32,000 bases of DNA from Erysipelotrichaceae bacterium (GCA_963663995.1 OY760660.1:960001-992000), one strand, 5' to 3'; positions 11,002-28,861 are shown, counted from the stretch's first letter. The notes: a model not told the origin generated them from the sequence alone. Numbers and translations: made by a program.

Positions 11002-11684
11002 AATTTCACCTTCTTTATTTCATCACTCGCGACTTTTCCATCCCATAAACTAATCTTACGATCAGTCGTATCAGCAATGTCATTGTCATGAGTAATAATC
11101 ACAACCGTTTTACCCAGTTCATTGAGTTTTCTAAGTTGTGCTAAAACTTCTTTCCCGGTTTTTGAATCGAGTGCCCCTGTTGGTTCATCCGCTAAGATAA
11201 TCGCAGGGTCATTAGATAAAGCACGGGCAATTGAAACACGTTGTTGTTGCCCACCTGAAAGTTCAGTTGGTTTATGATCTACACGATCTCCTAAACCAAC
11301 GAGTTCTAAAAGTTCTTGTGCTTTTTTTATCCTTTGAGATTTAGGTACTTTAGCATAAGTCATTGGAATCATGACATTTTCCAAAGCACTAAAAGTACTT
11401 AATAAATTAAATTGTTGAAAGATAAAACCAATTTGACGATTACGGATATCCGCTAAAGTATCTTGGTCATAATCTTTAATAGGAATATTGTTTAGTTCAT
11501 ATTCGCCTTCAGAGACGATATCTAAACAGCCAATTATATTCATTAGTGTTGATTTACCCGAACCAGAAGGTCCAACGATGGAGACAAATTCGCCTTCCTT
11601 AATCGATATATCAACTCCATTGAGAGCCATGACGATATTGTCACCCATCTCATAGCGTTTCTTTACATTCTTGAGTTCAATCAT
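10998..11684 (-). CDS. ABC transporter ATP-binding protein (MacB/LolD-like)
   Basis: Walker [10 protein letters not shown], signature LSGGQQQR, Walker B ILADEPT. There are ATGA overlaps at both ends. Confidence 0.92.
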
Positions 11685-13015
11685 TGATTAGGTCCAAACA
11701 TTAAACCAAATCCACTATCTTGATTTGGTACCACAATTTCTAAACCTTCTAAATTGTCTCCAATAACTTCAACTCGATAAACATCGGCAAAACCGGTTGT
11801 GACTGGGATATAGAAATCTGATTGCGGACGGCCAGGATTATCCATCCAAGCAGCATCAATCACAAATCGATCTGTCCCTTCACTTACTAAAGCTTCATAA
11901 GGAATCACTAAAATATTTGTTTTTGATTCAACAACGATTGAAGCTGAACCACTCATGCCTAAGAAGATAGGACTATCTGCACCATCAAATTCGATGGTAA
12001 TAGGATAGGTTGTATAGTCTAAATTGGTATTACCAATTTGAGAAATCTTAACAATGTGACCATCAAAACTTTGATTTACTGACTCTACATAAATGCTCAC
12101 TTTTTGATCAAAAGATATTTTATGAATATCTGTTTCAGCAATATTAACAACAAGTTCTAATGCATCAGAATTAGAAATAACCACATCGCCACTCAGAGCA
12201 CTTGAAACAGATGAAACAACACCATCTCGTGTTGCGATAATTTTCGCATCAACAGCACGAGCTTGATAGCTTCCTAAACTTTGGCCACTGTTGACATAAT
12301 CACCAACACTAACATTTGTACTTAACATTGTTCCATTAACATCAATCTCACGAGGACTACCATATGAAATACTTCCATGATAATACGTATTACCAGTATC
12401 AGGAATGTCGATTTTCGCAACCGCACTCATCCCTACAACCACTTTATTGGATGTATTTGTAAATTCTAATCCAATCATATATTGACCTAATGCATTTACA
12501 TTACTAGACTTAGATCTGACTTGACCATAAAAGGTTTCATCAGTTGCTTGCACATAAACTTCCGCATATTGACCTAAACTAATTTTATTAATTTGAAACT
12601 CATTAACCGGCATATCCATCGCAAGAATGGAGTAGTTAGAAATTTCAAATGTACTATCTAAACTATTTGCCACCTTAGTAATTACACCTGATGTTGGAGC
12701 GTATAATTCTTGGGCTGTTGTGCTTGTTTTGGTGTATTCACCTAAAATATCACCTTTCGCTACGACATCACCGACTTCCACAAACATCTCTGAAACGGCA
12801 CCTGATAATTTAATTGTATCTTCATCAGAAGATTGAATTTTACCTGTCGCAATTGAGACAAGTTCTATATCTCCTCGGCTAATCGTTGTGACTTCTGCAC
12901 TATTAGCCATTGACCCTTGTGCTAGGTTTCTTAAACCAAAAAATCCAGCTAATACAATGACAACAATTATCCCTAAAACGATTAACCAACGTTTTGTTTT
13001 CTTTTGTTTTTTCAT
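11681..13015 (-). CDS. Membrane-fusion / periplasmic-adaptor-like protein (HlyD family) of the ABC system
   Basis: 444 aa with an N-terminal TM (WLIVLGIIVVIVLAGFFGL) followed by beta-rich barrel-sandwich-like repeats (GDVVAKGDILGEY, VSVGDYVNSGQSLGSY). It is the first gene of the three-gene operon. The SD is AAGGAG. Confidence 0.75.
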   Translation of the reverse strand: MKKQKKTKRWLIVLGIIVVIVLAGFFGLRNLAQGSMANSAEVTTISRGDIELVSIATGKIQSSDEDTIKLSGAVSEMFVEVGDVVAKGDILGEYTKTSTTAQELYAPTSGVITKVANSLDSTFEISNYSILAMDMPVNEFQINKISLGQYAEVYVQATDETFYGQVRSKSSNVNALGQYMIGLEFTNTSNKVVVGMSAVAKIDIPDTGNTYYHGSISYGSPREIDVNGTMLSTNVSVGDYVNSGQSLGSYQARAVDAKIIATRDGVVSSVSSALSGDVVISNSDALELVVNIAETDIHKISFDQKVSIYVESVNQSFDGHIVKISQIGNTNLDYTTYPITIEFDGADSPIFLGMSGSASIVVESKTNILVIPYEALVSEGTDRFVIDAAWMDNPGRPQSDFYIPVTTGFADVYRVEVIGDNLEGLEIVVPNQDSGFGLMFGPNQ

Positions 13016-13893: not shown

Positions 13894-13915
13894 AAAAAAA
13901 GGACTTTCGTCCTTT
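13894..13915 (-). terminator. Intrinsic terminator after the VOC gene
   Basis: In the minus sense: AAAGGAC GAAA GUCCUUU followed by UUUUUU. The stem overlaps the VOC stop codon (13915-13917). Confidence 0.75.
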
Positions 13916-14388
13916 TAAACATTACCAACAACTTGAAGACTACCTTCAGTGTATTGCATGATTTCGAATTTATTGCCTTCAGGATCATGAATCCACATTT
14001 GCCATGTTCTTGATGGACCAATATTCGGTTCAACATCGATTTCAACACCTTTTGCAACAAGTTCATCTCGTGTTTTATGAATATCATCAACCAGTAATGC
14101 AAAGTGAGAATATCCAACATGTTCATTCCACTCTGTATGTGGTTTTTGATTTCCATTTGTAGGGAATAATTCAATAAACTGACCTGGTGCTAACTCAATA
14201 TAAGTTAGAAAAATATCATTCGGTCTTTCTTCTGCTAACTTCTTAAAATGCGGTTTTGGTGAATCTTTATAAACACCATAACGGGTTAATATTTTTTGTT
14301 TGAGTCCCAATTTATTGACGTAGAAATCGACCATTGTATCAAAATCATCTACATAGAATGAGACATGCATCACTGATTTAAAATTCAT
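13915..14388 (-). CDS. VOC (glyoxalase/bleomycin-resistance/dioxygenase) fold protein
   Basis: 157 aa with two VOC-like modules (MHVSFYVDDFDTMVDFYVNKLGL and YSHFALLVDDIHKTRDELVAKGVEI). Its start codon directly abuts the upstream stop (TAAATG). Confidence 0.75.
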   Translation of the reverse strand: MNFKSVMHVSFYVDDFDTMVDFYVNKLGLKQKILTRYGVYKDSPKPHFKKLAEERPNDIFLTYIELAPGQFIELFPTNGNQKPHTEWNEHVGYSHFALLVDDIHKTRDELVAKGVEIDVEPNIGPSRTWQMWIHDPEGNKFEIMQYTEGSLQVVGNV

Positions 14389-15339
14389 TTAATTTAGCTC
14401 CTTTTTAATTTCTGTGATTAATTTTATTAATTGAATAGAGTCTTGATGAGACATCCGTTCATCTTCATATTTTTTATTTTGAATACCTTTTTGTACAGCT
14501 TCGATTTCTCCAAAGAAATCATCTGTATTGTCTTCGTACTCACTAACTTGACCACTATCTAAACTGACTTTTATTTTGCTTGCGCGATGATAATCTGTCA
14601 CAAAGATAGATCCTTTATCACCAATAATCGTCATATTACGATCAATGTTTCTATCTAATGCATTATTCGCATAGCCAATCACACCATTATCAAATTCAAG
14701 GGTAATCCGCTCATAAGCATCAACAGCTTTTTTCATGTCACAGTCTGTTTTAATTGATTTGATATCACTCTTTATTAGATCAAGGATAGCCCCTAAAGTA
14801 TAGGAACCCACATCATAGAGAATCCCGCCTATTTGTGAATCATATAAATAACGAGCATGTTCATCAGGAATCATATAACCAAAACCTGTTTCAATACTTT
14901 TTACTTCACCAATAACTTTTGTATCTAATAATTCATGAAGTTTTACATTCAAAGGCATAAAACGTGTTTTTAGTGCTTCGACAAACATCACATTATTTGC
15001 TTTTGAGATATCTACTAAATCCTGTGTTTCTTCAACACTTAAGGTTGCAGGTTTTTCACATAAAACAGCCATCCCTTTTTCCAAAGCTTTTTTAGCCCAA
15101 AGATAGTGATCATTATGTCGTAATGTAATGTAGATAGCATTTACATTAGAATCATTTAATAATGCATCATAGTCTGTGTAAGTCACACAGTTTGGATAGT
15201 CTGATTTAATCTTATCTAATTTTGATTCAGTTCGACTGGCAATCGCATAGAGTTGTCCACTCTCACTTAAACTTAAACCTTTTAGAAAGCGGGTATAGGT
15301 TGAACCCAAACCAATTATTGCCCAATTAATCTTTTTCAT
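14389..15339 (-). CDS. Gfo/Idh/MocA family NAD(P)-dependent oxidoreductase (third copy)
   Basis: I place the start at ATG 15339 (MKKINWAIIGLGS, a Rossmann GxGxxG-like motif), preceded by GAGG 9 nt upstream; the track start is a TTG. The EKP motif is present (VLCEKPA). Confidence 0.85.
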   Translation of the reverse strand: MKKINWAIIGLGSTYTRFLKGLSLSESGQLYAIASRTESKLDKIKSDYPNCVTYTDYDALLNDSNVNAIYITLRHNDHYLWAKKALEKGMAVLCEKPATLSVEETQDLVDISKANNVMFVEALKTRFMPLNVKLHELLDTKVIGEVKSIETGFGYMIPDEHARYLYDSQIGGILYDVGSYTLGAILDLIKSDIKSIKTDCDMKKAVDAYERITLEFDNGVIGYANNALDRNIDRNMTIIGDKGSIFVTDYHRASKIKVSLDSGQVSEYEDNTDDFFGEIEAVQKGIQNKKYEDERMSHQDSIQLIKLITEIKKELN

Positions 15340-15432
15340 TTCAATAGACCTCAATATAATTTTAAATGCAAGACAATGAAATATTTTTCCAATATTTAAA
15401 AAATAATAATAGTTTATTTCAAACTTGCTTTT

Positions 15433-16377
15433 CTATCTAAATGGTGTAGCCATTTTCTTCCAAGTATATTGCTTTCCTTTTATAGAAACTGCTAACTGAT
15501 AAATATTTTCAGGCCATGTTCCTGCCCCAAATCCACCATCACCTATCGCATGGATATCGGCACCGGTTTGTTTCATAAGTAGTGCAACCTGACGTATTGT
15601 ATCTGTATCTGCCATTTCAACACTACTGTTTAGGAAAGTTAAAACTAGTGTTCCTGGTTTATAGCGATGGGTAAACTCTGCCAATTCTCGAATCATTTCA
15701 ACTGTAATACCATGACGACTTCCTGGTGCTGGTAAATCTATGCAATCAGCACCTGCATCAATTAGTTGTTTAATAATGTCTTTTGCATCATATTCAGCTA
15801 AAGGATCACCTAACACCTTTTCATTGATGCCATCTTCCCATTTACCAGCGCAAATAAGAACTTTGTCACCAGCGGTTTCCTTGGCTAGTTTTGTTGCGGT
15901 AATAACATCGGTAATTGATGTTCCACTACCAGGATTTCCCCCTAACACAATAAAATTTGCACCAATTTCAATAACATGTTGAAGATGTTCTTTGGAAAAC
16001 ATCATTCCACTCATCCGTTGAATACCAGGATCATTTAAATCTGAATCCACTTTAGGACAACCCATATAAATGCCCATCGGTTTATTTCCAACAAGCGCTT
16101 TAAGTTCTTGAAAGCTCATACCTTGTAAACCTTTGTTATTTTCTGGTTCATCAATATTGTAAGTATTTAACATCACCATATCCGCACCAAACGCAAACAT
16201 CAGTTCAGTATTGTTCACACCATGACATAAACCTTCATTAGCAAACAACAAATGTTGTCCCATAATGACGCGCCCTTCTGATTTGTAAATAGATTCTTTT
16301 AATTGTTGAGCTGTATACTTCGCAGCTTTACTTGGCTCAGCTGTAATTAATCGTGTTACTTCATAATCTAATTTCAT
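15433..16377 (-). CDS. Uncharacterised protein, probable phosphate-binding (beta/alpha)8-barrel
   Basis: 314 aa. It has a periodic strand-end pattern (FGADMVML, IGANFIVLGGNPGSG, AGADCIDLPAPG, TGADIHAIGDGGFGAG). The glycine-rich C-terminal loop resembles the phosphate-gripping loops of sugar-phosphate TIM barrels. I cannot assign a family. Confidence 0.5.
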   Translation of the reverse strand: MKLDYEVTRLITAEPSKAAKYTAQQLKESIYKSEGRVIMGQHLLFANEGLCHGVNNTELMFAFGADMVMLNTYNIDEPENNKGLQGMSFQELKALVGNKPMGIYMGCPKVDSDLNDPGIQRMSGMMFSKEHLQHVIEIGANFIVLGGNPGSGTSITDVITATKLAKETAGDKVLICAGKWEDGINEKVLGDPLAEYDAKDIIKQLIDAGADCIDLPAPGSRHGITVEMIRELAEFTHRYKPGTLVLTFLNSSVEMADTDTIRQVALLMKQTGADIHAIGDGGFGAGTWPENIYQLAVSIKGKQYTWKKMATPFR

Positions 16378-16389
16378 AACTCATCTTCC

Positions 16390-17037
16390 TTAATGATTGA
16401 TCTCTATCATGTTTCCTAATAAACCAACTACATCACCTGCTTGCACTTTATCAAGATTTTCTTTATGCGTTATGAACCATTTGTTTACTTTCTTTAAAAT
16501 GCCTAAACGATTTTCTATCGCTTGACCTGTACCTTTTAAAAGTAAACAGATTGTTTTAAACCCATATTGATCTACCGCAATCGGCGTATAGTGTAAACTT
16601 GTCGCATAACATTCAACAACACATCCTTTAGGTACGTAGAAAAACTCACAGTTTGATGAATCATACGTTTGATCAATCAAATCCCAGCGATGTCCAACTA
16701 CTAAAACATAATCAGTTACCGCAATGATTGTTTCACTACATTGATGATATTCAAGTCCATTCACAAGTCTATTGTGACCTAGCACAACACCAGCCATGAC
16801 AGGTAAATATCCATAAACTTGTTTCATCAATTGTTTTATCTTGATTTCATTTTCTAAATTCTCAATACTAGGTTCATATTTATTCCCATTCGTCGGGACT
16901 TGGTAGAGCTTATTTACAGCATTTATAACATCATTTAGATTTAGATGAATAATCTCACCATAGGTTTTAAACGAAGTATCTTTGATATCTTTAATATGCA
17001 AGTTTGGATTTAGTGTTTGTAAATCCGCTAATGTCAT
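16390..17037 (-). CDS. Uncharacterised protein (from memory resembles the DUF4867 class; possible cupin-like fold)
   Basis: 215 aa with no catalytic motif I can name. Its start forms an ATGA overlap with rpiB, and a 12-nt gap separates it from the next gene. The family assignment is from memory and unverified. Confidence 0.4.
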   Translation of the reverse strand: MTLADLQTLNPNLHIKDIKDTSFKTYGEIIHLNLNDVINAVNKLYQVPTNGNKYEPSIENLENEIKIKQLMKQVYGYLPVMAGVVLGHNRLVNGLEYHQCSETIIAVTDYVLVVGHRWDLIDQTYDSSNCEFFYVPKGCVVECYATSLHYTPIAVDQYGFKTICLLLKGTGQAIENRLGILKKVNKWFITHKENLDKVQAGDVVGLLGNMIEINH

Positions 17038-17489
17038 TTTAGTTTCTGTCTTTCTTCAATATCACTCAACAAATCAATACGTACTTGATGACGACCACCT
17101 TCAAACTCAGCACTCAACCATTCGTCGACAATCATCTTAGCTAGTTCAACACCGACCACACGTGCCCCAAAAGCTAGCATATTTGTATTATTGTGTTCTC
17201 TTGAGAGTTTAGCAGAATAAGGTTCGCTACAAGTCACACAACGGATACCGTTAACTTTATTGGCTGACAAACTAATGCCTACACCTGTTCCACAGATAAC
17301 AATTCCTTTATCAACTTCTCCTCTCACAACTGCATTTGCGACAGCTTCTCCTGCAACTGGATAATTAAAACGTTCAGTACTATCAGTTCCGAAATTAACT
17401 ATTTCATAACCATATTTTTCAGTGATATAAGCACTAATCGCATTTTTCATATCAATAGCAACATGATCGTTTCCAATACCTATTTTCAT
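17034..17489 (-). CDS. rpiB: RpiB/LacA/LacB-family sugar-phosphate isomerase (ribose-5-P / allose-6-P isomerase B type)
   Basis: 151 aa and collinear with E. coli RpiB as I recall it: GNDHV, the catalytic-Cys loop ICGTGVGISLSANK, SEPYSAKLSREHNNTNMLAFGARVVG and EGGRHQVRI. Confidence 0.9.
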   Translation of the reverse strand: MKIGIGNDHVAIDMKNAISAYITEKYGYEIVNFGTDSTERFNYPVAGEAVANAVVRGEVDKGIVICGTGVGISLSANKVNGIRCVTCSEPYSAKLSREHNNTNMLAFGARVVGVELAKMIVDEWLSAEFEGGRHQVRIDLLSDIEERQKLK

Positions 17490-18829
17490 AATTGTTCTCC
17501 TTTTGTCTCAATAAATTTCTTATACCAATAGAATGATTTCTTAGGTCTTCTTTCTAAAGTATTTTCATCTACATGAACAAAGCCATAACGTTTAACTAAT
17601 CCTTCACGCGTTGAATATAGATCTGTTGCACTCCACGTCATATAAGCTCTGACATCTACACCATTATCAACCGCGTCTTTCAACTGCTTAATATGAGCTT
17701 TTAGATAATCAATACGATAATCATCATTGATTGATCCATTATCTTCGACATTATCATAGGCACCCATGCCATTTTCAGTAATCACAATTGGCATTTGATA
17801 GCGATGTGAGAATTCCTCAAGCATGTGTCTAAATCCATAAGGATCAATATTCCATCCCCAGTCTGTTTGTTTAACATAAGGATTTTTTCCTTTAATCATG
17901 TTAATACCACTTGATCCATCAGTCGCATCAACTGTTGAAGTCATATAATAAGTCAAGCTGATAAAATCAGGTTGAGCTTTACTGATAATTTCTAAATCTC
18001 CATCTTGAATAACAAGTTTTCGATCATCTTCACTATATTGATTTAAGTATCTTTTCGAATATATGCCTTTACAATAAACATCGCCAAAGTTATAACCAAA
18101 CTTGTAATTAAGATCATCTGCTGCTTGAACATTGACAGGATTACAGGTCGCTGGAATGAAACAACAATTTCCAATATTGCCACCCGTTTTAGCGTTTGCA
18201 TCACATTGATGTATTAATTGTGTTGCTTGCGCGTATGCCATATTAAAATGATGTTCCATTGTGAAAATCTCACGGTCATTTTTTGCCTTATATCCTGTCA
18301 TGTATTCAGAATCAATAGCTAAAAAGTTTTGTTCATTAAAAGGTAACCAGTATTTAACTCTTCCCTTAAAATAACTAACAACTGTTTCAACATATTTTAG
18401 ATAATCCTCAACACATTGACGACTCATCCAACCGTTATATTCTTTTAATAAACTTAAAGGTAAATCATAGGCATAGAGCGTACATACTGGTTGAATTTTA
18501 TATTTTTCTAACTCAGTTAACATACGGTCATAGAAATCTAATCCTTCTTGATTAGGTTCATTATCATTCCCATTAGGGAAAATACGAGCCCACGACATCG
18601 TGAAACGATAAATTTCAAAACCCATTTCTCCGTAATATTTAATATCTTCTTCCAAATGGTGATAGTGATCTGCCGCTACTTTAAATGAATCAAAATTACT
18701 ATCCGTAATTGTCTCCATTTCAATTTTACGGACATCAGCAATGCTTAAACCTTTACCGCCATCCGCATATCCGCCTTCAAATTGTTGGGCATTTGTACTA
18801 CTCCCCCACAAAATATCTTGATAAGTCAT
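17486..18829 (-). CDS. GH1 6-phospho-beta-glycosidase (short paralogue)
   Basis: 447 aa with ILWGSSTNAQQFEGG, the acid/base Glu in LPFNEQN and the nucleophile in VITENGMG. The C-terminal WSATDLYS...VKRYGFVHVD carries the S/K/Y phosphate-binding pattern of phospho-specific GH1 enzymes. Confidence 0.88.
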   Translation of the reverse strand: MTYQDILWGSSTNAQQFEGGYADGGKGLSIADVRKIEMETITDSNFDSFKVAADHYHHLEEDIKYYGEMGFEIYRFTMSWARIFPNGNDNEPNQEGLDFYDRMLTELEKYKIQPVCTLYAYDLPLSLLKEYNGWMSRQCVEDYLKYVETVVSYFKGRVKYWLPFNEQNFLAIDSEYMTGYKAKNDREIFTMEHHFNMAYAQATQLIHQCDANAKTGGNIGNCCFIPATCNPVNVQAADDLNYKFGYNFGDVYCKGIYSKRYLNQYSEDDRKLVIQDGDLEIISKAQPDFISLTYYMTSTVDATDGSSGINMIKGKNPYVKQTDWGWNIDPYGFRHMLEEFSHRYQMPIVITENGMGAYDNVEDNGSINDDYRIDYLKAHIKQLKDAVDNGVDVRAYMTWSATDLYSTREGLVKRYGFVHVDENTLERRPKKSFYWYKKFIETKGEQL

Positions 18830-18830
18830 C

Positions 18831-20949
<2,119 letters not shown>

Positions 20950-20993
20950 ATTTTTATCCTCAATTTATTCGTTAAAAATTTCTAAATTTAAGT

Positions 20994-21023
20994 AGAAATG
21001 AGGAATGAACATTCCTCATTTCT
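20994..21023 (-). other. Strong intercistronic hairpin without a U-tract, between the EIIC and epimerase genes
   Basis: Perfect 13-bp stem AGAAATGAGGAAT (20994-21006) / ATTCCTCATTTCT (21011-21023) with a 4-nt loop. In the minus sense no U-run follows it. Confidence 0.6.
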
Positions 21024-21036
21024 TTATTAATTTAAA

Positions 21037-22368
21037 TTATGCGTTTGCTTTTTCAGCTTCAATTTTTGCTAATTCATTCTTTTCATAAACTCTCCAGAAT
21101 GGTAGGTAAATGAAGTAACCAATCGCTACGTTACATGCAACTACGATAATCCATTTCCAGTCACCAGATGAGGCAGGACCTAATAGGAATGGAGGTGTTG
21201 CCCAAGGTAGTGCAGCGAACATTCTCGCGACTAGTCCTAATTGCACAACGGCATATGTGAAGATTGAACTTACAACTTCTGCTAATAGGAATGGAATGAA
21301 TAGAATTGGATTCAATGCTAAAGGTAGACCAAACATAACTGGTTCAATGATTGTGAAGATACCAGCAGGAAGTGCGGTCGCAGCCAATGCTTTTTTACCA
21401 GGAATTTTAGATGTAAACATGAAGATAAAGAGTGGCCATACAGTGGCTGTCCAGTCATGCATACGTTCAAATGGTTGAGTCCAAATATAAGGTAGAGCTT
21501 GTCCAGCAGACACTGCTTCTGCATTAGCTGCAATAGTCATTGTTGTAAAAGGACCTGTAATTGCACCTAACATATTGTCACCATGAATACCAGCAGTCCA
21601 GAATAATTTACGTAGGAATTGTTGGAATGTATAGAACCAAATATTGTCACCAGCACTCATAAGTGGAGCAAGTAAAGTTGTTAACCAACTTGCTAAATCA
21701 AAGCCCAAAACAGTTCTAATTAACCAAGCGACTGTGAATACAACTGTATAAGGAATTAAAGCTGTAAATGAGTCAGCAATCATTGGTGGAACACCATCAG
21801 GCATTTTAATAACAACACCTGAATCAACAACTAATTTATAAAGTCTTACAGATAATAAGCCCACTAAAATCGCTGTAAATAACCCTGATGCACTGAAGGA
21901 TGATACGGGAATTCCTCCAATTGAGAATGGAATCATATTACCAGCTGCATCAGCTACTTCACCACTTAAACTTGTAGTATTAATAGTGATGAGTAAGAAT
22001 GAAACTAAACCTAAGATAGCTGCAGGTTTTGCACCAATCTCTAATTTTGTAGCATATGCCATCGCAATAGTAACTGCTGCATATAAGCCTAAGAAGTTCA
22101 TTGTTAAACCGAAGAACACCAAGAAGTCACCTGCGTATGGTGTTAAAAATGGTAATAAAACCGTAGGTTCACCACCAACTGCAATCCATGGTAAGGCTAA
22201 AACAGATAAAACGAGGCCAATAGACCCAATAATAACGATTGGCATAATACCAACCATACCTTCTTGAAGTGCTTGAACCCAAGGAATGCTCGCTAATTTG
22301 AACATTGGTTCAGCAATCTTCATCGTGAAGGCTTCGACATTTTCGAAGAAACTTTTCTTCTCTGACAT
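21037..22368 (-). CDS. PTS sugar transporter subunit EIIC, lactose/cellobiose (Lac) family
   Basis: 443 aa and polytopic. The N-terminal FMKIAEPMFKLASIPWVQALQEGMVGIMPIVIIGS is typical of CelB/ChbC-type EIIC. The SD is AAAGGAG. No EIIA or EIIB ORF is present anywhere in the window. Confidence 0.85.
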   Translation of the reverse strand: MSEKKSFFENVEAFTMKIAEPMFKLASIPWVQALQEGMVGIMPIVIIGSIGLVLSVLALPWIAVGGEPTVLLPFLTPYAGDFLVFFGLTMNFLGLYAAVTIAMAYATKLEIGAKPAAILGLVSFLLITINTTSLSGEVADAAGNMIPFSIGGIPVSSFSASGLFTAILVGLLSVRLYKLVVDSGVVIKMPDGVPPMIADSFTALIPYTVVFTVAWLIRTVLGFDLASWLTTLLAPLMSAGDNIWFYTFQQFLRKLFWTAGIHGDNMLGAITGPFTTMTIAANAEAVSAGQALPYIWTQPFERMHDWTATVWPLFIFMFTSKIPGKKALAATALPAGIFTIIEPVMFGLPLALNPILFIPFLLAEVVSSIFTYAVVQLGLVARMFAALPWATPPFLLGPASSGDWKWIIVVACNVAIGYFIYLPFWRVYEKNELAKIEAEKANA

Positions 22369-22408
22369 AAAATCTCCTTTCGTGATTTATCACTTTTTTT
22401 ATGTTGCC

Positions 22409-22455
22409 TTGATCTATATAGCAACCTTTCCCGTAATTGTGAAAATATAGATCAA
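22409..22455. repeat. Perfect 11-bp inverted repeat in the Gfo/Idh/MocA-EIIC intergenic gap
   Basis: TTGATCTATAT (22409-22419) and ATATAGATCAA (22445-22455) are separated by 25 nt. A competing 5-bp pairing, GUUGC/GCAAC, uses part of the same sequence. Confidence 0.6.
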
Positions 22456-22467
22456 TTGAGGCCAAAT

Positions 22468-23436
22468 TTAGGCGTCCGCTTGAAAGCGAACATTTGCACT
22501 TAATCGTGCGTTTGTAAGTAATTCCATACGATGTTGAATGACTTCGAATTGATTTTCTAATGAATGAAAATCTTTGTTTTTATATATCATTTGAAATGTT
22601 TGAATCTCATAGAAAAGTCTATTTTTTTCTTCTTGGATATTGAATCTCTCACCATCTATATCGAAGGATGCTAGTCCATTGATCCCTTGATTTAATTCAA
22701 TACATCCCTTCTCTCCATGAAAGATTCCACTTGGTTTGCCCTTGGCATTCTTTGCCGCAAGTGCACTAACCTTAAATTCACCGTAATCCATCATTAGTAA
22801 ACCCGATACATCAATACCGTTGTTAGCTAATACTGGATAATAATTGATTACCTGTGGATCACCTAGAACATTTAAGACAAAATGCAGGTGATAAATATTG
22901 AGATCCATCAGTGCGCCACCCGAGAACGCAGGGTTGAATACATTGGGTACTTCCCCACGTTTGAATTCATCGTATTTTCTCGAGTATTGACACATGGATA
23001 GTTCTACCCATTTTAGTGGGCCTATAGTATCTAATTTAGATTTCAACAGATCTAAATTAGGCATATAGTTAATGGACATCGCCTCAAATAGAAATAATTT
23101 CTTCTTCTTGGCTAAATCGATAATCTCTTGTGATTCACGATCTGTTGAACAGAATGGTTTTTCTAGAATCACATTTTTATTGGCATTCAAGCAATCTTTT
23201 GCTTGTTGATAATGAAGACTATTGGGTGATGCGATATAGATCGTATCAAAGCTATTTGAATGAATGAATTTTTCATAATCGTCATAGGCTTCCAACATAT
23301 TGAAGCTATCAACCAATTCATTCGCTTTAGCTATTGTTCTTGAATAGGAAGCAATCAAATCAACACCATCGACACTTTTGCAGGCATCTAGAAATTGAAT
23401 GACAATGAATCCACTACCTATCGTTCCAAGTTTCAT
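22468..23436 (-). CDS. Gfo/Idh/MocA family oxidoreductase (second copy)
   Basis: 322 aa with MKLGTIGSGFI (Rossmann) and the EKP motif (VILEKPF). Its start forms an ATGA overlap with the upstream gene. Confidence 0.85.
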   Translation of the reverse strand: MKLGTIGSGFIVIQFLDACKSVDGVDLIASYSRTIAKANELVDSFNMLEAYDDYEKFIHSNSFDTIYIASPNSLHYQQAKDCLNANKNVILEKPFCSTDRESQEIIDLAKKKKLFLFEAMSINYMPNLDLLKSKLDTIGPLKWVELSMCQYSRKYDEFKRGEVPNVFNPAFSGGALMDLNIYHLHFVLNVLGDPQVINYYPVLANNGIDVSGLLMMDYGEFKVSALAAKNAKGKPSGIFHGEKGCIELNQGINGLASFDIDGERFNIQEEKNRLFYEIQTFQMIYKNKDFHSLENQFEVIQHRMELLTNARLSANVRFQADA

Positions 23437-24455
23437 TTGTTTAAGCTAGCCTCAGCTTCCTTAACAATATTTAAGACAAACAATATTTCTTCTGGTTTAA
23501 CAATAAGTTCTCCATCTCCATTGATTACTAAATCTAAGTTGTTATAGATCTTTCCATATTCAGAGACTTCAGTTTGAATATATGTATCAACATCGTTTCC
23601 ATCTTTATCTATATACGATAGATGTCCCCAATTACTTTCTGGCTCTGGATCAAAGCTAACCACTACTGGTTCAGTTCTATTTGAACTTAAATGTCCTTGG
23701 GTGTTTTTAATAAAACTACCTTGGGTTCCATGAGCGATAAATTTTGGGAAATCAATCTTGGCACTCATGCTTGTTTTAACGGTAAATTTCATTTTCTCAT
23801 AATAGAAATCAATATCGATATTGTCATCAAACTCTGAAACAACAGACCGAACATCATATCTAATCTTGTCTGGTTTTCCAAAGAGATAGACCATTTGATC
23901 GATTGGGTGAATCGCTAAGCCAGATACCATTGTCATTTGACGTGGCATATTTGGGTCCGCTTTTTGATAACCTGGTCTGAAATAGTGGTAGTGTGATTGA
24001 ATTTCAACAATATCCCCTAAAACATGTGAATCGATTACTTTTTTAAGTGTTTGCATATCAGCATCGAATCGACGGTTATTATTACATGAGATAACTAGAC
24101 CTTTTTTATCAGCCAATTTAAATAATTCTTCAGCCTCTTTAATCGTGTTTGTAAATGGTTTTTCAACCAAGACATTCTTACCTGCCTCTAAACATTTTTT
24201 TGCGTATTCATAATGCACATCAACGTGTGTATTGATAGAAATTAAATTAACTTCTGGATCATTTAAGACTTCATCAAAATCCGTTGTAAATTTAAATTCA
24301 GGGTATAGTAACTCACGTTCCATTTCACCTGCTAATTCACGATCTTCTTGACGACGATAGACCCATTTCACATTTACATTTTTATTGTCTTTAATAAAAG
24401 GCAAGTGGTAACGTACAACACTATTTCCAAATCCAACATAAGCAACCGTTAGCAT
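23433..24455 (-). CDS. Gfo/Idh/MocA family oxidoreductase (first copy, first gene of the operon)
   Basis: I place the start at ATG 24455 (MLTVAYVGFGNS), preceded by GAAGGGG 6 nt upstream. The EKP motif is present (VLVEKPF). Confidence 0.85.
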   Translation of the reverse strand: MLTVAYVGFGNSVVRYHLPFIKDNKNVNVKWVYRRQEDRELAGEMERELLYPEFKFTTDFDEVLNDPEVNLISINTHVDVHYEYAKKCLEAGKNVLVEKPFTNTIKEAEELFKLADKKGLVISCNNNRRFDADMQTLKKVIDSHVLGDIVEIQSHYHYFRPGYQKADPNMPRQMTMVSGLAIHPIDQMVYLFGKPDKIRYDVRSVVSEFDDNIDIDFYYEKMKFTVKTSMSAKIDFPKFIAHGTQGSFIKNTQGHLSSNRTEPVVVSFDPEPESNWGHLSYIDKDGNDVDTYIQTEVSEYGKIYNNLDLVINGDGELIVKPEEILFVLNIVKEAEASLNK

Positions 24456-24498
24456 TTTGTTCCCCTTCTTTCTACACAAGCAAAATACCAACTTTAAC

Positions 24499-24512
24499 TG
24501 AAAGCGGATACT
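24499..24512. promoter_or_regulatory. Candidate catabolite-responsive element (cre, CcpA site)
   Basis: TGAAAGCGGATACT matches WTGNAANCGNWNNCW at every defined position except the leading W. Against TGWNANCGNTNWCA it matches 8 of 10 defined positions. It lies in the divergent control region. Confidence 0.4.
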
Positions 24513-24518
24513 TTTAAA

Positions 24519-24527
24519 TGCTATAAT
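24519..24527 (+). promoter_or_regulatory. Extended -10 promoter element for rpiR-family gene
   Basis: TGcTATAAT (TG at 24519-20, TATAAT at 24522-27). There is no good -35, as is usual for extended -10 promoters. Confidence 0.5.
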
Positions 24528-24534
24528 GAAATCG

Positions 24535-24587
24535 AATTACATTAATTTTTCATAAATTGATATTATTTTGAAATTCAATTACATTAA
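24535..24587. repeat. Two direct copies of AATTACATTAA spaced 42 bp apart (possible RpiR operator)
   Basis: The copies are at 24535-24545 and 24577-24587, with flanks also similar (TCgAATTACATTAAtTT and TCaAATTACATTAAaTT). They lie between the rpiR -10 element and its start codon. Confidence 0.45.
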
Positions 24588-24606
24588 ATTAAAGGATTAT
24601 ATAAAT

Positions 24607-25422
24607 ATGATTAAACGTAGACTTTTAGAAACCGACCACCTTTCATCAAGCGAACAGACTATTGCCAAATATATTTTGGACAATCCTGAATGTGTTTTAA
24701 ATTGCACTGCAAAAGACCTAGCCGCTCTTGTTTACACATCTTCACCGACAATCATTCGCTTTTGTCGTAAACTAGGTTTTTCAGGATATCCAGATTTCAG
24801 ATATCAATACATCAAAGAACTTTCAGCTATGCCAAAAGAAAAAGAAGAAATATCTGTCTCTTCTTCATTAAATGATGTTTTGAGATTATTGCCCATACGT
24901 TATGAACTTGTCGCAAAGAACAGTGCTGATCGTATTGATACAAAAGAATTTGCTTATATAGTTTCTGAATTTAGAAAAGCTAGTAATATTGATTTTTATG
25001 CAACAGGAATTAATTTGGGAATAGCACAAGCTGCTTGTGTACGGTTTAATAATTTAGGTTATCACGCTCAGGTTCAATTAGGCATTAATAAACATTACAT
25101 CGTTTCTCAAACCCCTCAACAAAGAGAAAAGACATTATCCTTTATCATTTCTCATACCGGGACTAATGAGTCTGTCATAGAAGTTGCTCATTATTTAAAA
25201 GAAGTTCATATGAAGATGGTACATTTAGGACGTACAAACAATAAACTCTATGACTTAGCTGATTATCATATTCTATGGGATAATGATCGTTATGATCATC
25301 GTTATGATAATTTATCGTATCCATTATCATTAATGTTTATATTGGATGTTTTATACTTAGAGCTTACTAACATCAAAAAATATAATGACCCTGAAACAGA
25401 TGAAGTCATTAAACCTATTTAA
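24607..25422 (+). CDS. RpiR/MurR-family transcriptional regulator (HTH_6 + SIS)
   Basis: I place the start at ATG 24607 (MIKRRLLE...), preceded by AAAGGA; the track start at 24568 is a TTG. The N-terminal EQTIAKYILDNPE...AKDLAALVYTSSPTIIRFCRKLGFSGYPDFR is the RpiR HTH. The C-terminal half has SIS-like length and pattern. Confidence 0.85.
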   Translation: MIKRRLLETDHLSSSEQTIAKYILDNPECVLNCTAKDLAALVYTSSPTIIRFCRKLGFSGYPDFRYQYIKELSAMPKEKEEISVSSSLNDVLRLLPIRYELVAKNSADRIDTKEFAYIVSEFRKASNIDFYATGINLGIAQAACVRFNNLGYHAQVQLGINKHYIVSQTPQQREKTLSFIISHTGTNESVIEVAHYLKEVHMKMVHLGRTNNKLYDLADYHILWDNDRYDHRYDNLSYPLSLMFILDVLYLELTNIKKYNDPETDEVIKPI

Positions 25423-25466: not shown

Positions 25467-25709
25467 CTACATGAATTTCCCGTCTTCAACAACACGGAAA
25501 GCAATGAGTTTTCCAAATTTTGTATTTTTAATTAAGTCTTTTGCGATTTTAACGACATCATCTCCGTCATTGAAATTTTCAACCTCAAATTGAATAGTTC
25601 CCCTAAAATTATTGGGATGACCCAAATATTTAAAAATAGGTTGTTCATTTGCTTCCAATAGTTCTATAATTTCATCTTGTTTATTTCCTGAATCAACATT
25701 TATCTTCAT
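25467..25709 (-). CDS. Small acidic hypothetical protein (80 aa)
   Basis: I place the start at ATG 25709 (MKINVDSGNK...), preceded by GAGGTG; the track start at 25736 is a TTG. I recognise no motif. Confidence 0.5.
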   Translation of the reverse strand: MKINVDSGNKQDEIIELLEANEQPIFKYLGHPNNFRGTIQFEVENFNDGDDVVKIAKDLIKNTKFGKLIAFRVVEDGKFM

Positions 25710-25917
25710 ACTCACCTCACGCTCATTAACAATCAATTGTTAGTAAAGCCATTTTCCTTTTAAAAATTTATCAATTCCTAATTAATGTGAATACAATATA
25801 GATTATTAATGAAAGCAAATTACATATATCGAGACAATATCAAGCATTTTATGAAATTCCGTTTCATTTGCACACAGTTTCAAACAAAGAAAATGTCAAA
25901 ATTATAAATATTGTGAC

Positions 25918-25945
25918 TGTTTGAATCATCAAACATGCTTTTTTT
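25918..25945 (+). terminator. Orphan plus-strand terminator-like hairpin in a long non-coding spacer
   Basis: TGTTTGA ATCA TCAAACA (7 bp), then TGC and TTTTTTT (25939-45). There is no plus-strand gene upstream of it. Confidence 0.35.
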
Positions 25946-26059
25946 AATGCTTCTCTAATGAACTTATGATGTTCAAGACCTTTACAATCACTAGCGTTTG
26001 CACCTACCTATTGGCTAGATATTGAAACACTATCTCAATAAAAAAAAACAATATGTAAC

Positions 26060-26089
26060 AAAAAAACCATCCGTTTTACTTGATGGTTT
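26060..26089 (-). terminator. Intrinsic terminator after the lipoprotein pair
   Basis: In the minus sense: AAACCAUC (26089-82) / GAUGGUUU (26071-64) with a 10-nt loop, followed by UUUU. It begins 4 nt after the stop at 26094. Confidence 0.75.
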
Positions 26090-26093
26090 GATT

Positions 26094-27782
26094 TTATTCT
26101 GTTGAAGTTTCTATGATTGGCTCACTTACTTTATAAACACCTTTTTCAAGACTTATCACATATTCAGCATTTTCTATTTCTACTACTTCTTCAGCAACTT
26201 GATATTTCGCATTTACTAAAGCAATATAATCTCCATTTTCATCCGTTGAAATGAAGACTTCACCATAAGATTTCAATTTAGCATCCTTCACTGACTGATT
26301 ATCAGCATAGGTATTCCAATCATTAGCTCTTTCACTTATTGGAGTGAGCAGATATGTGAAAGATAAACGATTACGGATTTGATAATCTAAATAACGTCTT
26401 AAAGCATCTTCTGCACTTCGACCTAATTGATCAACACCTTCAATTTGACTATAACGATTAAAATCTTCAGTAAAGAACGTTTGTGGTAAGTAGCGATTAC
26501 TGGACATCCAGATAATATATTCTTCTAGACCAACATCATATGTTGCCTTAATTTGTGCTTGCATAGCATCTTCATCATATTCGATATAGCCTTTTACCCA
26601 ACTTGCTGTAAAACCCTGAAGCCATGGTCGAATCGTTGCACCATTTTCAAGTGCGGCATTTTTTTCAATACCTTGAAGTAAAGCTTCTTTTACAACTTCA
26701 TATGGATGAGCATCCGGATAAGTAAAACCATAAAAGCCTTCCCCATAATGACTTGGATAGACCATCGGACATATGACATCCACTTGTGGTGCAATCTTTA
26801 TCCACGTCTGACCAATATCTTCTGGTTGATCATTCCAAGAATAGGTAATAACCCCAAAAACATCAGCCGCTAAATTGACTTTATAAGGTTCTAATGCAAT
26901 TCTTGATGCTATTAAGAAATCTTCAATCGCATCGTCTTTAGCACGATCATTACGATTTGAAAACACGGTAATTGGATTATACTTTGCCGCATTATCGGGA
27001 AATCTAACATAGTCATATTGAATTTCATCAAAGCCACGTAGAGCTGCTTCTTGAGCAATCGCTATATTATACTTCCAGACATACTCATCAAACGGATTGA
27101 CCCATGAGAAACCTGACTTATCTTTATAAACACCTGATCCATCTTTTAATTGAATCGCATGTTCAGGATTATTTTCGGCAAAATACGGATCCTTAAATGC
27201 AACAATCCGGGCAATTTTATAAACATCATTCGCATCTAAATAATCTAAAAGTGTTTGATAATCTGTCCATGGAACATACCAGTTCGCTTTAATATCATTT
27301 ACAAGCTGAACATTCGATGGCCATCCAACTAAACCTCGATCATCCTTAACATCAATGACTAAAGAATTGATTTCAGTCGCTTGCACAATTCCTAAGATCT
27401 CTTCTAATCGATTGACAGACTCTAACCGTGATTCATCGAAACTTTCACCATTATGTGTTTTTGTAATGAATTCAGCATAGGTATTAACATCTTCTTCATT
27501 AAAACCTAATCCAGCTATATTAAAGGTCACATAAAGTGCTTTAACCGTTTCAGTTTCTAAAACAACTTCATCATTAGGACTTGGAAGTGGTACATAAAAC
27601 TCACCTAAATCATATTCTCTAATCACTTCATTGGCTTCATATTCCGCTTGAAGACGGGCAGCGATTTCCTCTGCACTCTCAACTTCTTCTATAGGTTCTT
27701 CAATCACTTCTTCATCAATTGTTTGATTTGAACATGCAACAAGCATTGGGATTAATAATAATGAAAATAATTTAGTACGCAT
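26094..27782 (-). CDS. Lipoprotein, putative glycoside-hydrolase-like TIM barrel (DUF4015/GHL-type, from memory)
   Basis: 562 aa with the lipobox LVAC in MRTKLFSLLLIPMLVACSNQ. The central pattern VKALYVT...INSLVIDVKDD...IARIVAFKD...WVNP...GFDEIQYDYVRFP resembles the putative glycosyl hydrolase family related to GH114/PelA-type barrels. Its start overlaps the upstream gene by 11 nt. Confidence 0.55.
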   Translation of the reverse strand: MRTKLFSLLLIPMLVACSNQTIDEEVIEEPIEEVESAEEIAARLQAEYEANEVIREYDLGEFYVPLPSPNDEVVLETETVKALYVTFNIAGLGFNEEDVNTYAEFITKTHNGESFDESRLESVNRLEEILGIVQATEINSLVIDVKDDRGLVGWPSNVQLVNDIKANWYVPWTDYQTLLDYLDANDVYKIARIVAFKDPYFAENNPEHAIQLKDGSGVYKDKSGFSWVNPFDEYVWKYNIAIAQEAALRGFDEIQYDYVRFPDNAAKYNPITVFSNRNDRAKDDAIEDFLIASRIALEPYKVNLAADVFGVITYSWNDQPEDIGQTWIKIAPQVDVICPMVYPSHYGEGFYGFTYPDAHPYEVVKEALLQGIEKNAALENGATIRPWLQGFTASWVKGYIEYDEDAMQAQIKATYDVGLEEYIIWMSSNRYLPQTFFTEDFNRYSQIEGVDQLGRSAEDALRRYLDYQIRNRLSFTYLLTPISERANDWNTYADNQSVKDAKLKSYGEVFISTDENGDYIALVNAKYQVAEEVVEIENAEYVISLEKGVYKVSEPIIETSTE

Positions 27783-28797
27783 AGATTTCCTTATCTAGAT
27801 TTTGTTTTAACTGATCATTTTTTATAGTAGGTATGGTAACTATATCAGGATTCCCATCACTGATAAACTTACGTTCTGGTTGATTGATATCACGTTGTAA
27901 ATAATCATATAAACCAACGCCATCCGTATTCATTTCTGAAGCACGAACACGTGGAACAGATAATGCATTAAAGTCTGCATCATAAGGTGATACGGATGGA
28001 TTTGACCCCACTTTAAGCAAAGTAATGTTATCATATGGCACACCTTCATATTCACCGTGAACCATATAGTCCATTAATGATTCATCAGGACGTGAGCCAT
28101 AGACTAAAGCCATTGTATTAACGTGATAATCTGTGTGCAAATACGACTCAATCTTTTGAGCTTGTGCACCGATTTCATATTGAACACTTGCAGCATCTGT
28201 AATATTTTTAAAGTTAGGATGAGAGACTGTATGATTCCCTACGTCCATGCCCATATCAATTAACATATTTAATTTTGTTTCAATTAGACTGTATTGTCCA
28301 AAGATATTATCACCAGTTAAAAAGAATGTTGCTTCAAGCGGAAAGTCAGGATGTGCTTCATTAAATTCTTTTAATATCCCTACCGCACAATTGGGATCAA
28401 TGCTTCCATCTTCTAAGAGTTTAAAGTTATCCAACTTACCATCATCAAAGGTCAAGACTACTGGCGTAAAACCCATTTCCGTTGTTATATTTCCAGTCAC
28501 AAAATCAGTTAAAGAAATCGGTCTAAAGCCTTGATCATATAGATTTTGTAAATCTTTTTTAAAATTATCGACAGTTCTTACCCAATCAGATTCTTCTTGA
28601 TTGATCCCATGATACATCAAAACCATAATCTCTCCACTCTCATCTGGTTGTAAACTCAAGTCAATTTTATCAATTGGATTTTCAACAACTTCTTCAATTT
28701 CTTCAAGATTCTCATCAATAAGCTCTTCATCAGTTTTTGTGTCATTTTGACTACAAGCACTTAGAAGTAAAACGAATGTTATTAGTATTTTTTTCAT
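27772..28797 (-). CDS. Lipoprotein, polysaccharide deacetylase (CE4 / NodB homology domain)
   Basis: 341 aa with the lipobox LSAC in FVLLLSACSQN, CE4 motif 1 (VLTFDDG) and motif 2 (HTVSH). Confidence 0.85.
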   Translation of the reverse strand: MKKILITFVLLLSACSQNDTKTDEELIDENLEEIEEVVENPIDKIDLSLQPDESGEIMVLMYHGINQEESDWVRTVDNFKKDLQNLYDQGFRPISLTDFVTGNITTEMGFTPVVLTFDDGKLDNFKLLEDGSIDPNCAVGILKEFNEAHPDFPLEATFFLTGDNIFGQYSLIETKLNMLIDMGMDVGNHTVSHPNFKNITDAASVQYEIGAQAQKIESYLHTDYHVNTMALVYGSRPDESLMDYMVHGEYEGVPYDNITLLKVGSNPSVSPYDADFNALSVPRVRASEMNTDGVGLYDYLQRDINQPERKFISDGNPDIVTIPTIKNDQLKQNLDKEIYAY

Positions 28798-28836
28798 ACC
28801 ATCCTATTATCACATAACTTTCTATTTTTTCTTGAT

Positions 28837-28861
28837 AAAAAAACACTTCTTAATAGAAGTG
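28837..28861 (-). terminator. Intrinsic terminator after the lplA-GntR-GntR unit
   Basis: In the minus sense: CACUUCU AUUA AGAAGUG followed by UUUUUUU. The stop codon of the GntR gene lies in the loop. Confidence 0.7.

Follow-up and report, generated by a model that had tools for sequence, protein, structure and literature searches.

What does an operon feed on when its enzymes do not seem to add up to any one pathway? This question is raised by a gene island in a 32,000-nucleotide stretch of DNA from an Erysipelotrichaceae bacterium (GCA_963663995.1 OY760660.1:960001-992000; hereafter the window), which among named organisms is closest to Longibaculum muris and Candidatus Stoquefichus, of the order Erysipelotrichales. 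The island is transcribed from the minus strand in the order GFO1, GFO2, EIIC, Rpe, GH1a, GH1b, RpiB, DUF4867, DUF7916, GFO3 and VOC, with a divergent RpiR regulator at its head (Table 1). It encodes a permease subunit of the phosphotransferase system (PTS), two GH1 glycosidases, a sugar-phosphate isomerase, an epimerase, three Gfo/Idh/MocA oxidoreductases (GFO1 to GFO3), a VOC-fold protein and two proteins that had been left unassigned. The initial annotation held that no described operon combines these parts; this is wrong for the core of the island, since a Listeria cassette joins PTS, GH1, RpiB, Rpe and DUF7916. Our results suggest that the island is a composite PTS-dependent sugar operon that would serve for the uptake of a beta-glycoside, its cleavage by GH1 and the conversion of an allose-type hexose-6-phosphate to fructose-6-phosphate, a reading on which we are evenly divided.

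Relationship to the Listeria D-allose cassette

The Listeria monocytogenes lineage-II cassette lmo0734-lmo0739 confers growth on D-allose, as established by experiment (PMC5893763). Growth on D-allose was abolished by deletion of lmo0734 (regulator), lmo0735 (Rpe) or lmo0736 (RpiB), slowed by deletion of lmo0737 (DUF7916) or lmo0738 (PTS) (0.108 and 0.106 OD/h, respectively, vs 0.150 OD/h for the full cassette) and unaffected by deletion of lmo0739 (GH1); lmo0737 was described as a hypothetical TIM-barrel protein located between RpiB and the PTS gene (PMC5893763). When translated, the standard typing primers for lmo0737 give GLQGLT and MASRNR, both of them motifs of DUF7916. Moreover, they map within the DUF7916 gene of the Listeria monocytogenes locus that we retrieved, LacI / Rpe-RpiB-DUF7916-EIIBCA-GH1 (here and below the slash sets off the regulator gene), spanning 691 bp and matching the published product.

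As judged by protein comparison, Rpe, RpiB, DUF7916 and GH1b of the window are orthologues of lmo0735, lmo0736, lmo0737 and lmo0739, respectively. DUF7916 is 62% identical to lmo0737 over 312 aa, RpiB shows 64% identity with lmo0736 and 60% with the RpiB of E. coli, whose annotation is allose-6-phosphate isomerase, and Rpe is 53% identical to lmo0735 and 34% to E. coli AlsE. GH1b matches lmo0739 over its full length with 60% identity; GH1a is only 39% identical to lmo0739. The two loci thus have in common Rpe, RpiB, DUF7916 and a GH1 of the same subtype (YAY, see below) within one PTS-linked operon. The Listeria cassette has one GH1 and no DUF4867, Gfo/Idh/MocA or VOC gene, whereas the window adds a second GH1 of a different subtype (YKY). 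Synteny with an experimentally characterised operon is seen in part: four genes are orthologous, while the regulator, the PTS family, DUF4867, the three dehydrogenases and VOC differ.

Two other systems bear on the core. The E. coli als regulon (alsR/rpiR, rpiB, alsBACEK) resembles the island in having an RpiR-family regulator, RpiB and an Rpe-family epimerase, which act from allose-6-phosphate via allulose-6-phosphate to fructose-6-phosphate. It differs in using an ATP-binding cassette (ABC) transporter and the kinase AlsK instead of a PTS, and in lacking GH1, DUF7916, DUF4867 and Gfo/Idh/MocA genes; family scans of the 32 kb found neither an AlsK kinase nor an AlsBAC ABC transporter. In C. 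innocuum, which belongs to the same order as the window organism, an Rpe homologue that adjoins PTS genes and is ~35% identical to AlsE acts as an allulose-6-phosphate 3-epimerase, restoring growth on allulose and allose in an E. coli alsE mutant (PMC12216980). That locus, which we compared by the paper's description only, differs by a fructose-bisphosphate aldolase nearby (PMC12216980).

In the pathway that we propose, the Lac-family EIIC would import and 6-phosphorylate the presumed beta-glycoside by means of EIIA and EIIB encoded elsewhere. GH1a and/or GH1b would then release a hexose-6-phosphate other than glucose-6-phosphate, most likely allose-configured, which RpiB would convert to allulose-6-phosphate and the Rpe homologue to fructose-6-phosphate, presumably in that order. 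RpiR would probably respond to a sugar phosphate. Such a use of the isomerase/epimerase pair was one of two options put forward in the initial annotation, and it is the best-supported one, given the four Listeria orthologues (with Rpe and RpiB needed for D-allose) and the C. innocuum epimerase; the substrate itself is one that we infer.

RpiB and Rpe could also be a true ribose-5-phosphate isomerase and ribulose-5-phosphate epimerase, in which case the PTS substrate would be funnelled to a pentose-5-phosphate, perhaps via DUF7916. Both proteins score above the rpiB and rpe equivalog cut-offs (Table 1), and the pentitol PTS operons of Listeria hold extra rpiB and rpe copies, which we count in favour of this route. 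We nevertheless find it very doubtful: without the orthologous genes Listeria does not grow on D-allose, which is a hexose, these cassettes encode no transketolase or transaldolase, and C1-releasing or decarboxylating chemistry is not evident.

The island is composed of two units

Comparison with related genomes revealed that the island consists of two units. The first, Rpe-GH1a-GH1b-RpiB-DUF4867-DUF7916, is a variant of a cassette that is widespread in Bacillota and Actinomycetota and that has been characterised in the form of Listeria lmo0734-lmo0739. The second, RpiR / GFO1-GFO2-EIIC ... GFO3-VOC, is an RpiR-controlled transporter/dehydrogenase unit that is also found alone. A sister genome (L165) carries at the same site, between the same flanks, only RpiR / GFO1-GFO2-EIIC-GFO3-VOC, with proteins that are 77-93% identical to those of the window across the operon; the flanking PAP2 is only 60% identical. 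In an alignment of the two loci (A5), the L165 spacer between EIIC and GFO3 aligns with the window spacer between DUF7916 and GFO3, and the window sequence 3' of the EIIC end is not homologous to the L165 spacer. Since those spacers align, the two genomes differ by exactly the stretch bounded by the stop codons of EIIC and DUF7916. Note that a strong hairpin stands at the left edge of this block (Table 1); it may act as an internal attenuator, stabilise the RNA or be what the rearrangement left behind.

The gene order of the window recurs in two other contigs: L166 has RpiR / GFO1-GFO2-EIIC-Rpe-GH1a-RpiB-DUF4867-DUF7916 at a different genomic site, and L167 has EIIC-Rpe-GH1a-GH1b-RpiB-DUF4867-DUF7916. 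The arrangement is therefore not a chance juxtaposition. A more distant locus, L168, has only RpiR / GFO1-GFO2-EIIC, and its EIIC, which follows GFO1-GFO2 with no glycosidase there, is 72% identical to that of the window. Because both L165 and L168 keep GFO1-GFO2-EIIC without the cassette, EIIC is part of the dehydrogenase unit, which has either gained the cassette by insertion or lost it. The L165 permease (11070-12410) is 93% identical to that of the window and the neighbouring genes 77-87%, so that either a stronger constraint on EIIC or a more recent exchange of the permease has to be assumed.

The initial annotation had noted that the locus has no EIIA/EIIB, sugar kinase, antiterminator or recognisable aldolase, and genes for these (antiterminators of the PRD type included) are missing from the whole 32 kb; family scans across the window gave no match to PTS_IIA, PTS_IIB or PRD domains. 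The missing EIIA and EIIB are no anomaly, because relatives of the window cassette encode EIIB inside the cassette and because EIIA/EIIB components shared by several EIICs are documented in Enterococcus (PMC11976118).

Conservation of the cassette in other genomes

We surveyed the neighbourhood of DUF7916 in one genome per species, which gave 79 DUF7916 loci and, together with L001 (the same locus as in the window, from an independent assembly, and the source of our comparison gene calls), 80 loci for analysis. The 79 loci, in which DUF7916 is 56-71% identical to that of the window, come from Bacillota, from Collinsella and other Coriobacteriia, and from one Pantoea. RpiB is found nearby in 64 of the 80 loci and Rpe in 60, followed by GH1 (35), Lac-type EIIC (19), RpiR (16), DUF4867, GFO3 and VOC (13 each), GFO1 (12) and GFO2 (11). 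The usual order, as obtained by clustering of open reading frames (ORFs) and Pfam labels, is LacI / EIIBC-DUF7916-(GH1)-RpiB-Rpe, with an EIIBC of the Bgl family; among the 79 related loci, 39 have a Bgl-type EIIBC and 50 have LacI. The DUF7916 gene nearly always adjoins a PTS permease gene, also in loci that lack RpiB and Rpe. The Longibaculum muris DSM 29487 locus (L002) has all the families of the island.

In other Coprobacillaceae the two units lie side by side, LacI / Rpe-EIIB-DUF7916-RpiB-(DUF4867)-DeoC-like-GH1-GFO3-VOC and RpiR / DUF7916-(GH1)-(HAD)-GFO1-GFO2-(VOC). In a neighbour-joining tree, the DUF7916 of the window clusters with the RpiR/GFO-linked paralogues.

Six Coprobacillaceae loci (L002, L003, L005, L008, L009 and L022) also contain, beside the cassette, a Lac-type EIIC, two small zinc-ribbon membrane proteins, a ~308-aa protein and canonical GH1 enzymes of the His type. 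By eye, the sequence of the ~308-aa protein looks like that of a type I mannose-6-phosphate isomerase. This set looks like a separate beta-mannoside or beta-glucoside system.

The GH1 enzymes and the ordinary beta-glucoside operon

GH1a and GH1b both have the acid/base NE, the nucleophile ENG and the C-terminal KRYG phosphate motif, which is typical of 6-phospho enzymes. On the curated 6-phospho-beta-glucosidase models, their best scores are below the cut-offs (510 bits vs 623 and 360 bits vs 639). Relatives of GH1a are 79-88% identical to it. The solved 6-phospho-beta-glucosidases have S-H-F/Y inside the motif TLxH[FW][DE]xP, whose His hydrogen-bonds the sugar of the -1 subsite in a GH1 neutron structure. 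At this place GH1a has Y-K-Y (His to Lys), and GH1b has Y-A-Y (His to Ala), as does lmo0739. When 66 GH1 proteins were compared (63 from cassette neighbourhoods plus GH1a, GH1b and lmo0739), the motif position was occupied by Lys in 32, by Ala in 6 and by His in 28. The His is absent from 18 of the 27 GH1 enzymes adjacent to the DUF7916/RpiB/Rpe triad, vs 17 of the 36 non-adjacent ones, and its loss is thus not clearly confined to copies embedded in the cassette.

These observations bear on the simplest explanation of the locus, namely an ordinary cellobiose or aryl-beta-glucoside operon that merely lies next to unrelated housekeeping genes. The Lac-family EIIC and the phosphate-binding motifs of both GH1 enzymes are indeed what such operons usually have, and this likeness to the Lac/Cel PTS beta-glucoside operons (cel, bgl, lic; for example the Enterococcus faecalis cellodextrin PTS, PMC11976118) is clear. 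We regard this explanation as barely credible, however. The window lacks the EIIA, EIIB and PRD regulator of the canonical cel/bgl operons, both of its GH1 enzymes fall under the curated cut-offs and are without the conserved -1 subsite His, and it has additional isomerase, epimerase and dehydrogenase genes. Moreover, the genes are translationally coupled, their order recurs at the other genomic site in L166, and DUF7916, RpiB and Rpe are linked in ~60 genomes across phyla.

What weighs against an allose pathway

Several results count against the allose-type pathway proposed above. First, the Listeria cassette may accept D-allose only by chance. No gene of the cassette is more conserved or more PTS-linked than DUF7916, yet it is dispensable for the conversion of allose-6-phosphate to fructose-6-phosphate, and therefore the real substrate may differ. 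Second, the pathway leaves the three dehydrogenases and VOC, conserved with EIIC, without a role. Third, the window Rpe scores 186 bits on the AlsE model NF007266 (cut-off 271) and passes the ordinary Rpe model TIGR01163. Fourth, the Listeria cassette has a LacI regulator where the window has RpiR, and a Bgl-family EIIBCA beside DUF7916 where the window has a Lac-family EIIC without EIIA/EIIB. Finally, the loss of the GH1 His is not universal: it is kept in 9 of the 27 GH1 enzymes directly adjoining DUF7916, RpiB or Rpe, and since these adjacent copies retain it, its loss would be a suggestive, not a decisive, cassette-specific signal. In addition, a contact of this His with O3 specifically is only presumed.

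DUF4867 and DUF7916

The two proteins that had been left unassigned are now placed in the families DUF4867 and DUF7916, and neither completes a standard cellobiose pathway. DUF4867 matches PDB entry 9GYY (1e-34), and the Glu/His/Glu/His metal ligands of that structure (a 2His-2Glu site) align and are conserved. The paper on the crystal structure found no activity and noted a GH1-linked cluster within the family (PMC11968277). The likeness to SftX/SqvD of the sulfoquinovose pathways (9GYY) lies in the family and in the 2His-2Glu metal site; their context is sulfoglycolysis, in contrast to the PTS context of the window.

DUF7916 has no detectable sequence relative among the solved structures in the PDB. 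Its AlphaFold (AF2) model is an eight-stranded TIM barrel (pLDDT 76, pTM 0.82), for which the best Foldseek matches are barrels of the phosphoenolpyruvate mutase/isocitrate lyase, DRE-TIM and class II aldolase types, all of them weak (TM 0.45-0.55). A profile search of the whole library gave 526 representatives of the family. Arg36, Glu58, Ser252, Glu254, Lys269 and Asp280 are conserved, as are several His in the main clade only; in the clade of the allose cassettes, several conserved residues are replaced. At the end of strand 3, a probable active-site position, the clades differ by Glu-to-Cys. Taken at face value, the conserved residues suggest a metal-dependent active site.

Different lines of evidence tie DUF7916 to the PTS. 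A fusion protein of 428 aa (P0245/P0271, high-GC), found on three contigs of different sources, consists of a complete HPr with the active-site His motif GLHARPA, a linker of ~50 residues and then DUF7916, which hints at a direct link of DUF7916 to the PTS phosphorelay. A metagenome scan, made with a narrower alignment of the family, added distant members. Some of these (L083, L153, L157) lie beside a PTS EIIC with a Gfo/Idh/MocA gene, a SIS_2 protein and a NagA-like amidohydrolase, an amino-sugar-like context; others (L086, L088, L090) are found with a Lac-type PTS and GH4 phospho-glycosidases. Because DUF7916 is permease-adjacent even without RpiB/Rpe, is fused to HPr and has its distant members in PTS loci, it is probably a family of PTS-coupled sugar-phosphate enzymes.

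Some other roles were considered. Kinship to BtpA/SgcQ of the E. coli sgc PTS operon was rejected (hhalign probability 0.5%). An EIIA-like phosphocarrier, an idea prompted by the HPr fusion, is unlikely, as the family has no family-wide His or Cys and co-occurs with a complete EIIBCA in Listeria. A phospho-glycosidase by analogy with MupG is less fitting, the Glu-to-Cys difference suiting base catalysis better.

The dehydrogenases, VOC and two further explanations

GFO1, GFO2 and GFO3 match, among solved structures, only structural-genomics entries that lack a function. GFO1 matches 3f4l (YhhX) with 1e-77, a structure without an assigned function, and we found no functional data on YhhX in the literature; its score on NCBIfam PRK10206 is 293 bits, below the cut-off. 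The best PDB matches of GFO2, 2ho5 and 4iq0, have no assigned function either. At the family level, GFO2 and GFO3 resemble dihydrodiol, inositol and xylose dehydrogenases. The catalytic EKP motif is intact in all three proteins. GFO1 and GFO2 are joined by an ATGA overlap and are invariably found together in relatives, and the GFO3-VOC pair, which is coupled by TAAATG in the window, recurs in relatives, often beside a GH1 gene.

The known 3-keto routes (E. coli YcjQRS, Bacteroides BT2156-2160 and Agrobacterium) pair a Gfo/Idh/MocA dehydrogenase with a TIM-barrel enzyme. Dehydrogenases beside a TIM-barrel protein in a glycoside locus are also what the window has. Those routes act on unphosphorylated glycosides with xylose-isomerase-like barrels, whereas the window would use PTS products and the DUF7916 barrel.

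This likeness leads to the main rival of the composite operon. GFO1 and GFO2 would oxidise and re-reduce the PTS product (a hexose-6-phosphate or a glycoside-6-phosphate), most simply at C3, DUF7916 would act on the keto intermediate as an epimerase or lyase, and RpiB/Rpe and GH1 would take the allo-configured products; the guloside-to-glucoside route of E. coli YcjQ/R/S is a precedent. Several observations are in line with this idea. The adjacent trio DUF7916-GFO1-GFO2 recurs under RpiR in Coprobacillaceae and in a Clostridium metagenome-assembled genome (L008, L021, L026, L034, L057, L067), a Gfo/Idh/MocA gene adjoins DUF7916 in the distant clade too (L083, L084, L153, L157), and the window DUF7916 belongs with the GFO-linked paralogues. 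RpiR / GFO1-GFO2-EIIC occurs without any glycosidase, and the catalytic EKP motif is kept in all three dehydrogenases. As for DUF7916, its conserved acidic, His and Lys residues and the Glu-to-Cys difference between clades fit proton abstraction, and its best fold matches are metal-dependent enolising TIM barrels. These matches are weak, however (see the TM values above), and the NCBIfam models of the glycoside/disaccharide 3-dehydrogenases BT_2158 and BT_2159 score 27-44 bits, far below their cut-offs of 650-750. Pfam found no xylose-isomerase-like TIM barrel in the window, DUF7916 being the sole barrel. Moreover, dehydrogenases are missing from the most frequent form of the cassette (LacI / EIIBC-DUF7916-RpiB-Rpe, the Listeria type), and therefore DUF7916 must be able to function without one. 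On balance we consider this route unlikely.

As a tentative proposal, which we think improbable as a whole, DUF7916 could be a new metal-dependent TIM-barrel family that acts on PTS-made sugar phosphates and that, with GFO1/GFO2, would form a phosphorylated counterpart of the keto-sugar epimerisation or cleavage routes; the GH1 subfamilies without the His would then be enzymes of the 6-phospho-beta-allosidase type.

The second option of the initial annotation concerned the aglycone: GH1 would free glucose-6-phosphate or allose-6-phosphate, and the aglycone, be it a second sugar, a cyclitol or a phenolic, would be converted or rendered harmless by the three dehydrogenases and VOC. The lack of a sugar kinase in the 32 kb for a released free sugar would agree with this, as would the dehydrogenase families that GFO2 and GFO3 resemble and the conserved GFO3-VOC pair, often beside GH1 and perhaps with its own promoter. 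Against it, L165 has GFO1-GFO2-EIIC-GFO3-VOC with no glycosidase at the site, DUF7916 and DUF4867 travel with RpiB/Rpe and the PTS and not with an aglycone route, and enzymes that would process an oxidised aglycone further are missing. Moreover, RpiR has a SIS domain, a type of domain that as a rule binds sugar phosphates, which points to phosphorylated intermediates. We judge the aglycone route to be decidedly unlikely.

Regulation and non-coding elements

RpiR has family-level NCBIfam matches to HexR, AlsR and MurR, and is 19% identical to E. coli AlsR. Its divergent position is kept in L165, L166 and L168. The two palindromes in the divergent promoter region (Table 1) are the sole perfect matches to TGAAAT-N3-ATTWCA in the window; L165 and L166 retain the two of them, L168 clearly only the first (alignment A6). 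This pair is probably the binding site of RpiR.

A second pair of boxes (TGAAAT-N3-ATTTCA-like, 25810-25866), with one mismatch each and the same 42-bp spacing, lies upstream of an ORF of 80 aa (25467-25709, minus strand) that is conserved, has no family match and adjoins rpiR also in L165 (7717-7959). Because of this upstream box pair and the adjacency to rpiR in the sister genome, the 80-aa ORF may be in the same regulon.

Between the operator pair and the GFO1 start there is a box, AGTATCCGCTTTCA (24499-24512), which is conserved in the window, L165 and L166 and agrees with the cre consensus at only 10/14 positions. The window contains no strict cre site, and no Rfam riboswitch or leader was found in it. 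The 78-nt AT-rich spacer before GFO3 has a weak hairpin with a T-run (15412-15424) and promoter-like hexamers, so GFO3-VOC may have its own promoter.

Locus layout and gene calls

All twelve ORFs of the initial annotation, eleven on the minus strand plus the divergent RpiR, were found where it had placed them, and the families that it named agree with the Pfam and NCBIfam assignments (Table 1). Direct reading of the sequence confirmed the three ATGA overlaps (23433-36, 17486-89, 17034-37) as well as the TAAATG junction (14388/89). The 1-nt gap at 20292 is present with the called coordinates, but becomes 10 nt if GH1a starts at the possible alternative ATG 20282. Ribosome-binding sites and the gene calls on L001 point to ATG 24607 as the probable start of RpiR (271 aa) and ATG 24455 as that of GFO1 (340 aa). 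GFO3 possibly starts a few codons downstream of its called start.

Table 1. Genes and sequence elements of the island, in window coordinates
Feature	Position	Strand	Basis or remark
Intrinsic-terminator-like hairpin, AAGGAC-GAAA-GTCCTT then T7	13894-13914	-	Directly after the VOC stop; marks the 3' end of the unit
VOC/glyoxalase-fold protein	13915-14388	-	Pfam and NCBIfam, family level only
GFO3, third Gfo/Idh/MocA oxidoreductase	14389-15354	-	Pfam
DUF7916 TIM-barrel protein, lmo0737 orthologue by sequence	15433-16377	-	Pfam PF25509, 3e-88
Six-gene block Rpe-GH1a-GH1b-RpiB-DUF4867-DUF7916, absent from L165	about 15433-21036 (5.6 kb)	-	L165 gene map
DUF4867 cupin metalloprotein	16390-17037	-	Pfam PF16161, 3e-54, 184 bits, above cut-off
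RpiB-type sugar-phosphate isomerase, predicted allose-6-phosphate/ribose-5-phosphate isomerase	17034-17489	-	TIGR01120, 185 bits vs cut-off 139
GH1b, 6-phospho-beta-glycosidase-like, YAY subtype, lmo0739 orthologue by sequence	17486-18829	-	
GH1a, 6-phospho-beta-glycosidase-like, YKY subtype	18831-20291	-	
Rpe-family protein, predicted allulose-6-phosphate 3-epimerase	20293-20949	-	TIGR01163, 216 bits vs cut-off 213
Strong hairpin, 13-bp perfect stem, arms extendable to 25 nt (near-perfect)	20983-21034	-	Directly after the EIIC stop, left edge of the block
Lac/Cel-family PTS EIIC, part of the RpiR/GFO unit	21037-22368	-	TIGR00410, 255 bits vs cut-off 236
GFO2, second Gfo/Idh/MocA oxidoreductase	22468-23436	-	Pfam
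GFO1, Gfo/Idh/MocA oxidoreductase, YhhX type	ORF 23433-24491, probable gene 23433-24455	-	Pfam
Two operator-like palindromes TGAAAT-N3-ATTWCA, 42 bp apart	24527-24541, 24569-24583		Direct repeat D15, in the 152-bp divergent promoter region
RpiR-family regulator, HTH_6 and SIS	ORF 24568-25422, probable gene 24607-25422	+	Pfam

Some genes are broken in the related assemblies. In L001 (9874-10819) DUF7916 is split into pieces of 46 aa and 272 aa, the window copy being intact, and in L166 GFO2 and RpiB are split (3947-4961 and 8694-9330); these are either assembly errors or signs of operon decay in some strains.

Beyond rpiR, L165 has an additional gene (4977-7508) for an 843-aa flavodiiron/rubredoxin/pyridine-nucleotide oxidoreductase between DUF4015 and the 80-aa ORF. 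The window has no such gene (compare 25737-26093), so there is a second indel at the locus. Further upstream (26094-30339, minus strand), the window encodes a putative glycosyl hydrolase (DUF4015), a polysaccharide deacetylase and a tandem pair of GntR/UTRA regulators, all conserved in L165, which probably form a separate carbohydrate locus.

Implications

The DUF7916-marked cassette is widespread: it occurs in Bacillota from gut and food, in Collinsella and even in one Pantoea, and one of its genes, lmo0737, is a routine PCR marker for Listeria serogroups. The cassette can plug as a block into a separate RpiR-controlled transporter/dehydrogenase operon, and it is now linked to two GH1 subfamilies with an altered sugar-binding site. 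If DUF7916 does act with GFO1/GFO2 on PTS-made sugar phosphates, as tentatively proposed above, gut Bacillota could feed on beta-glycosides of rare or C3-modified hexoses, either allo-configured or 3-keto. The island and its relatives thus provide concrete candidates for the use of allose, allulose and their glycosides by gut bacteria, which has practical weight, as allulose is sold as a sweetener.

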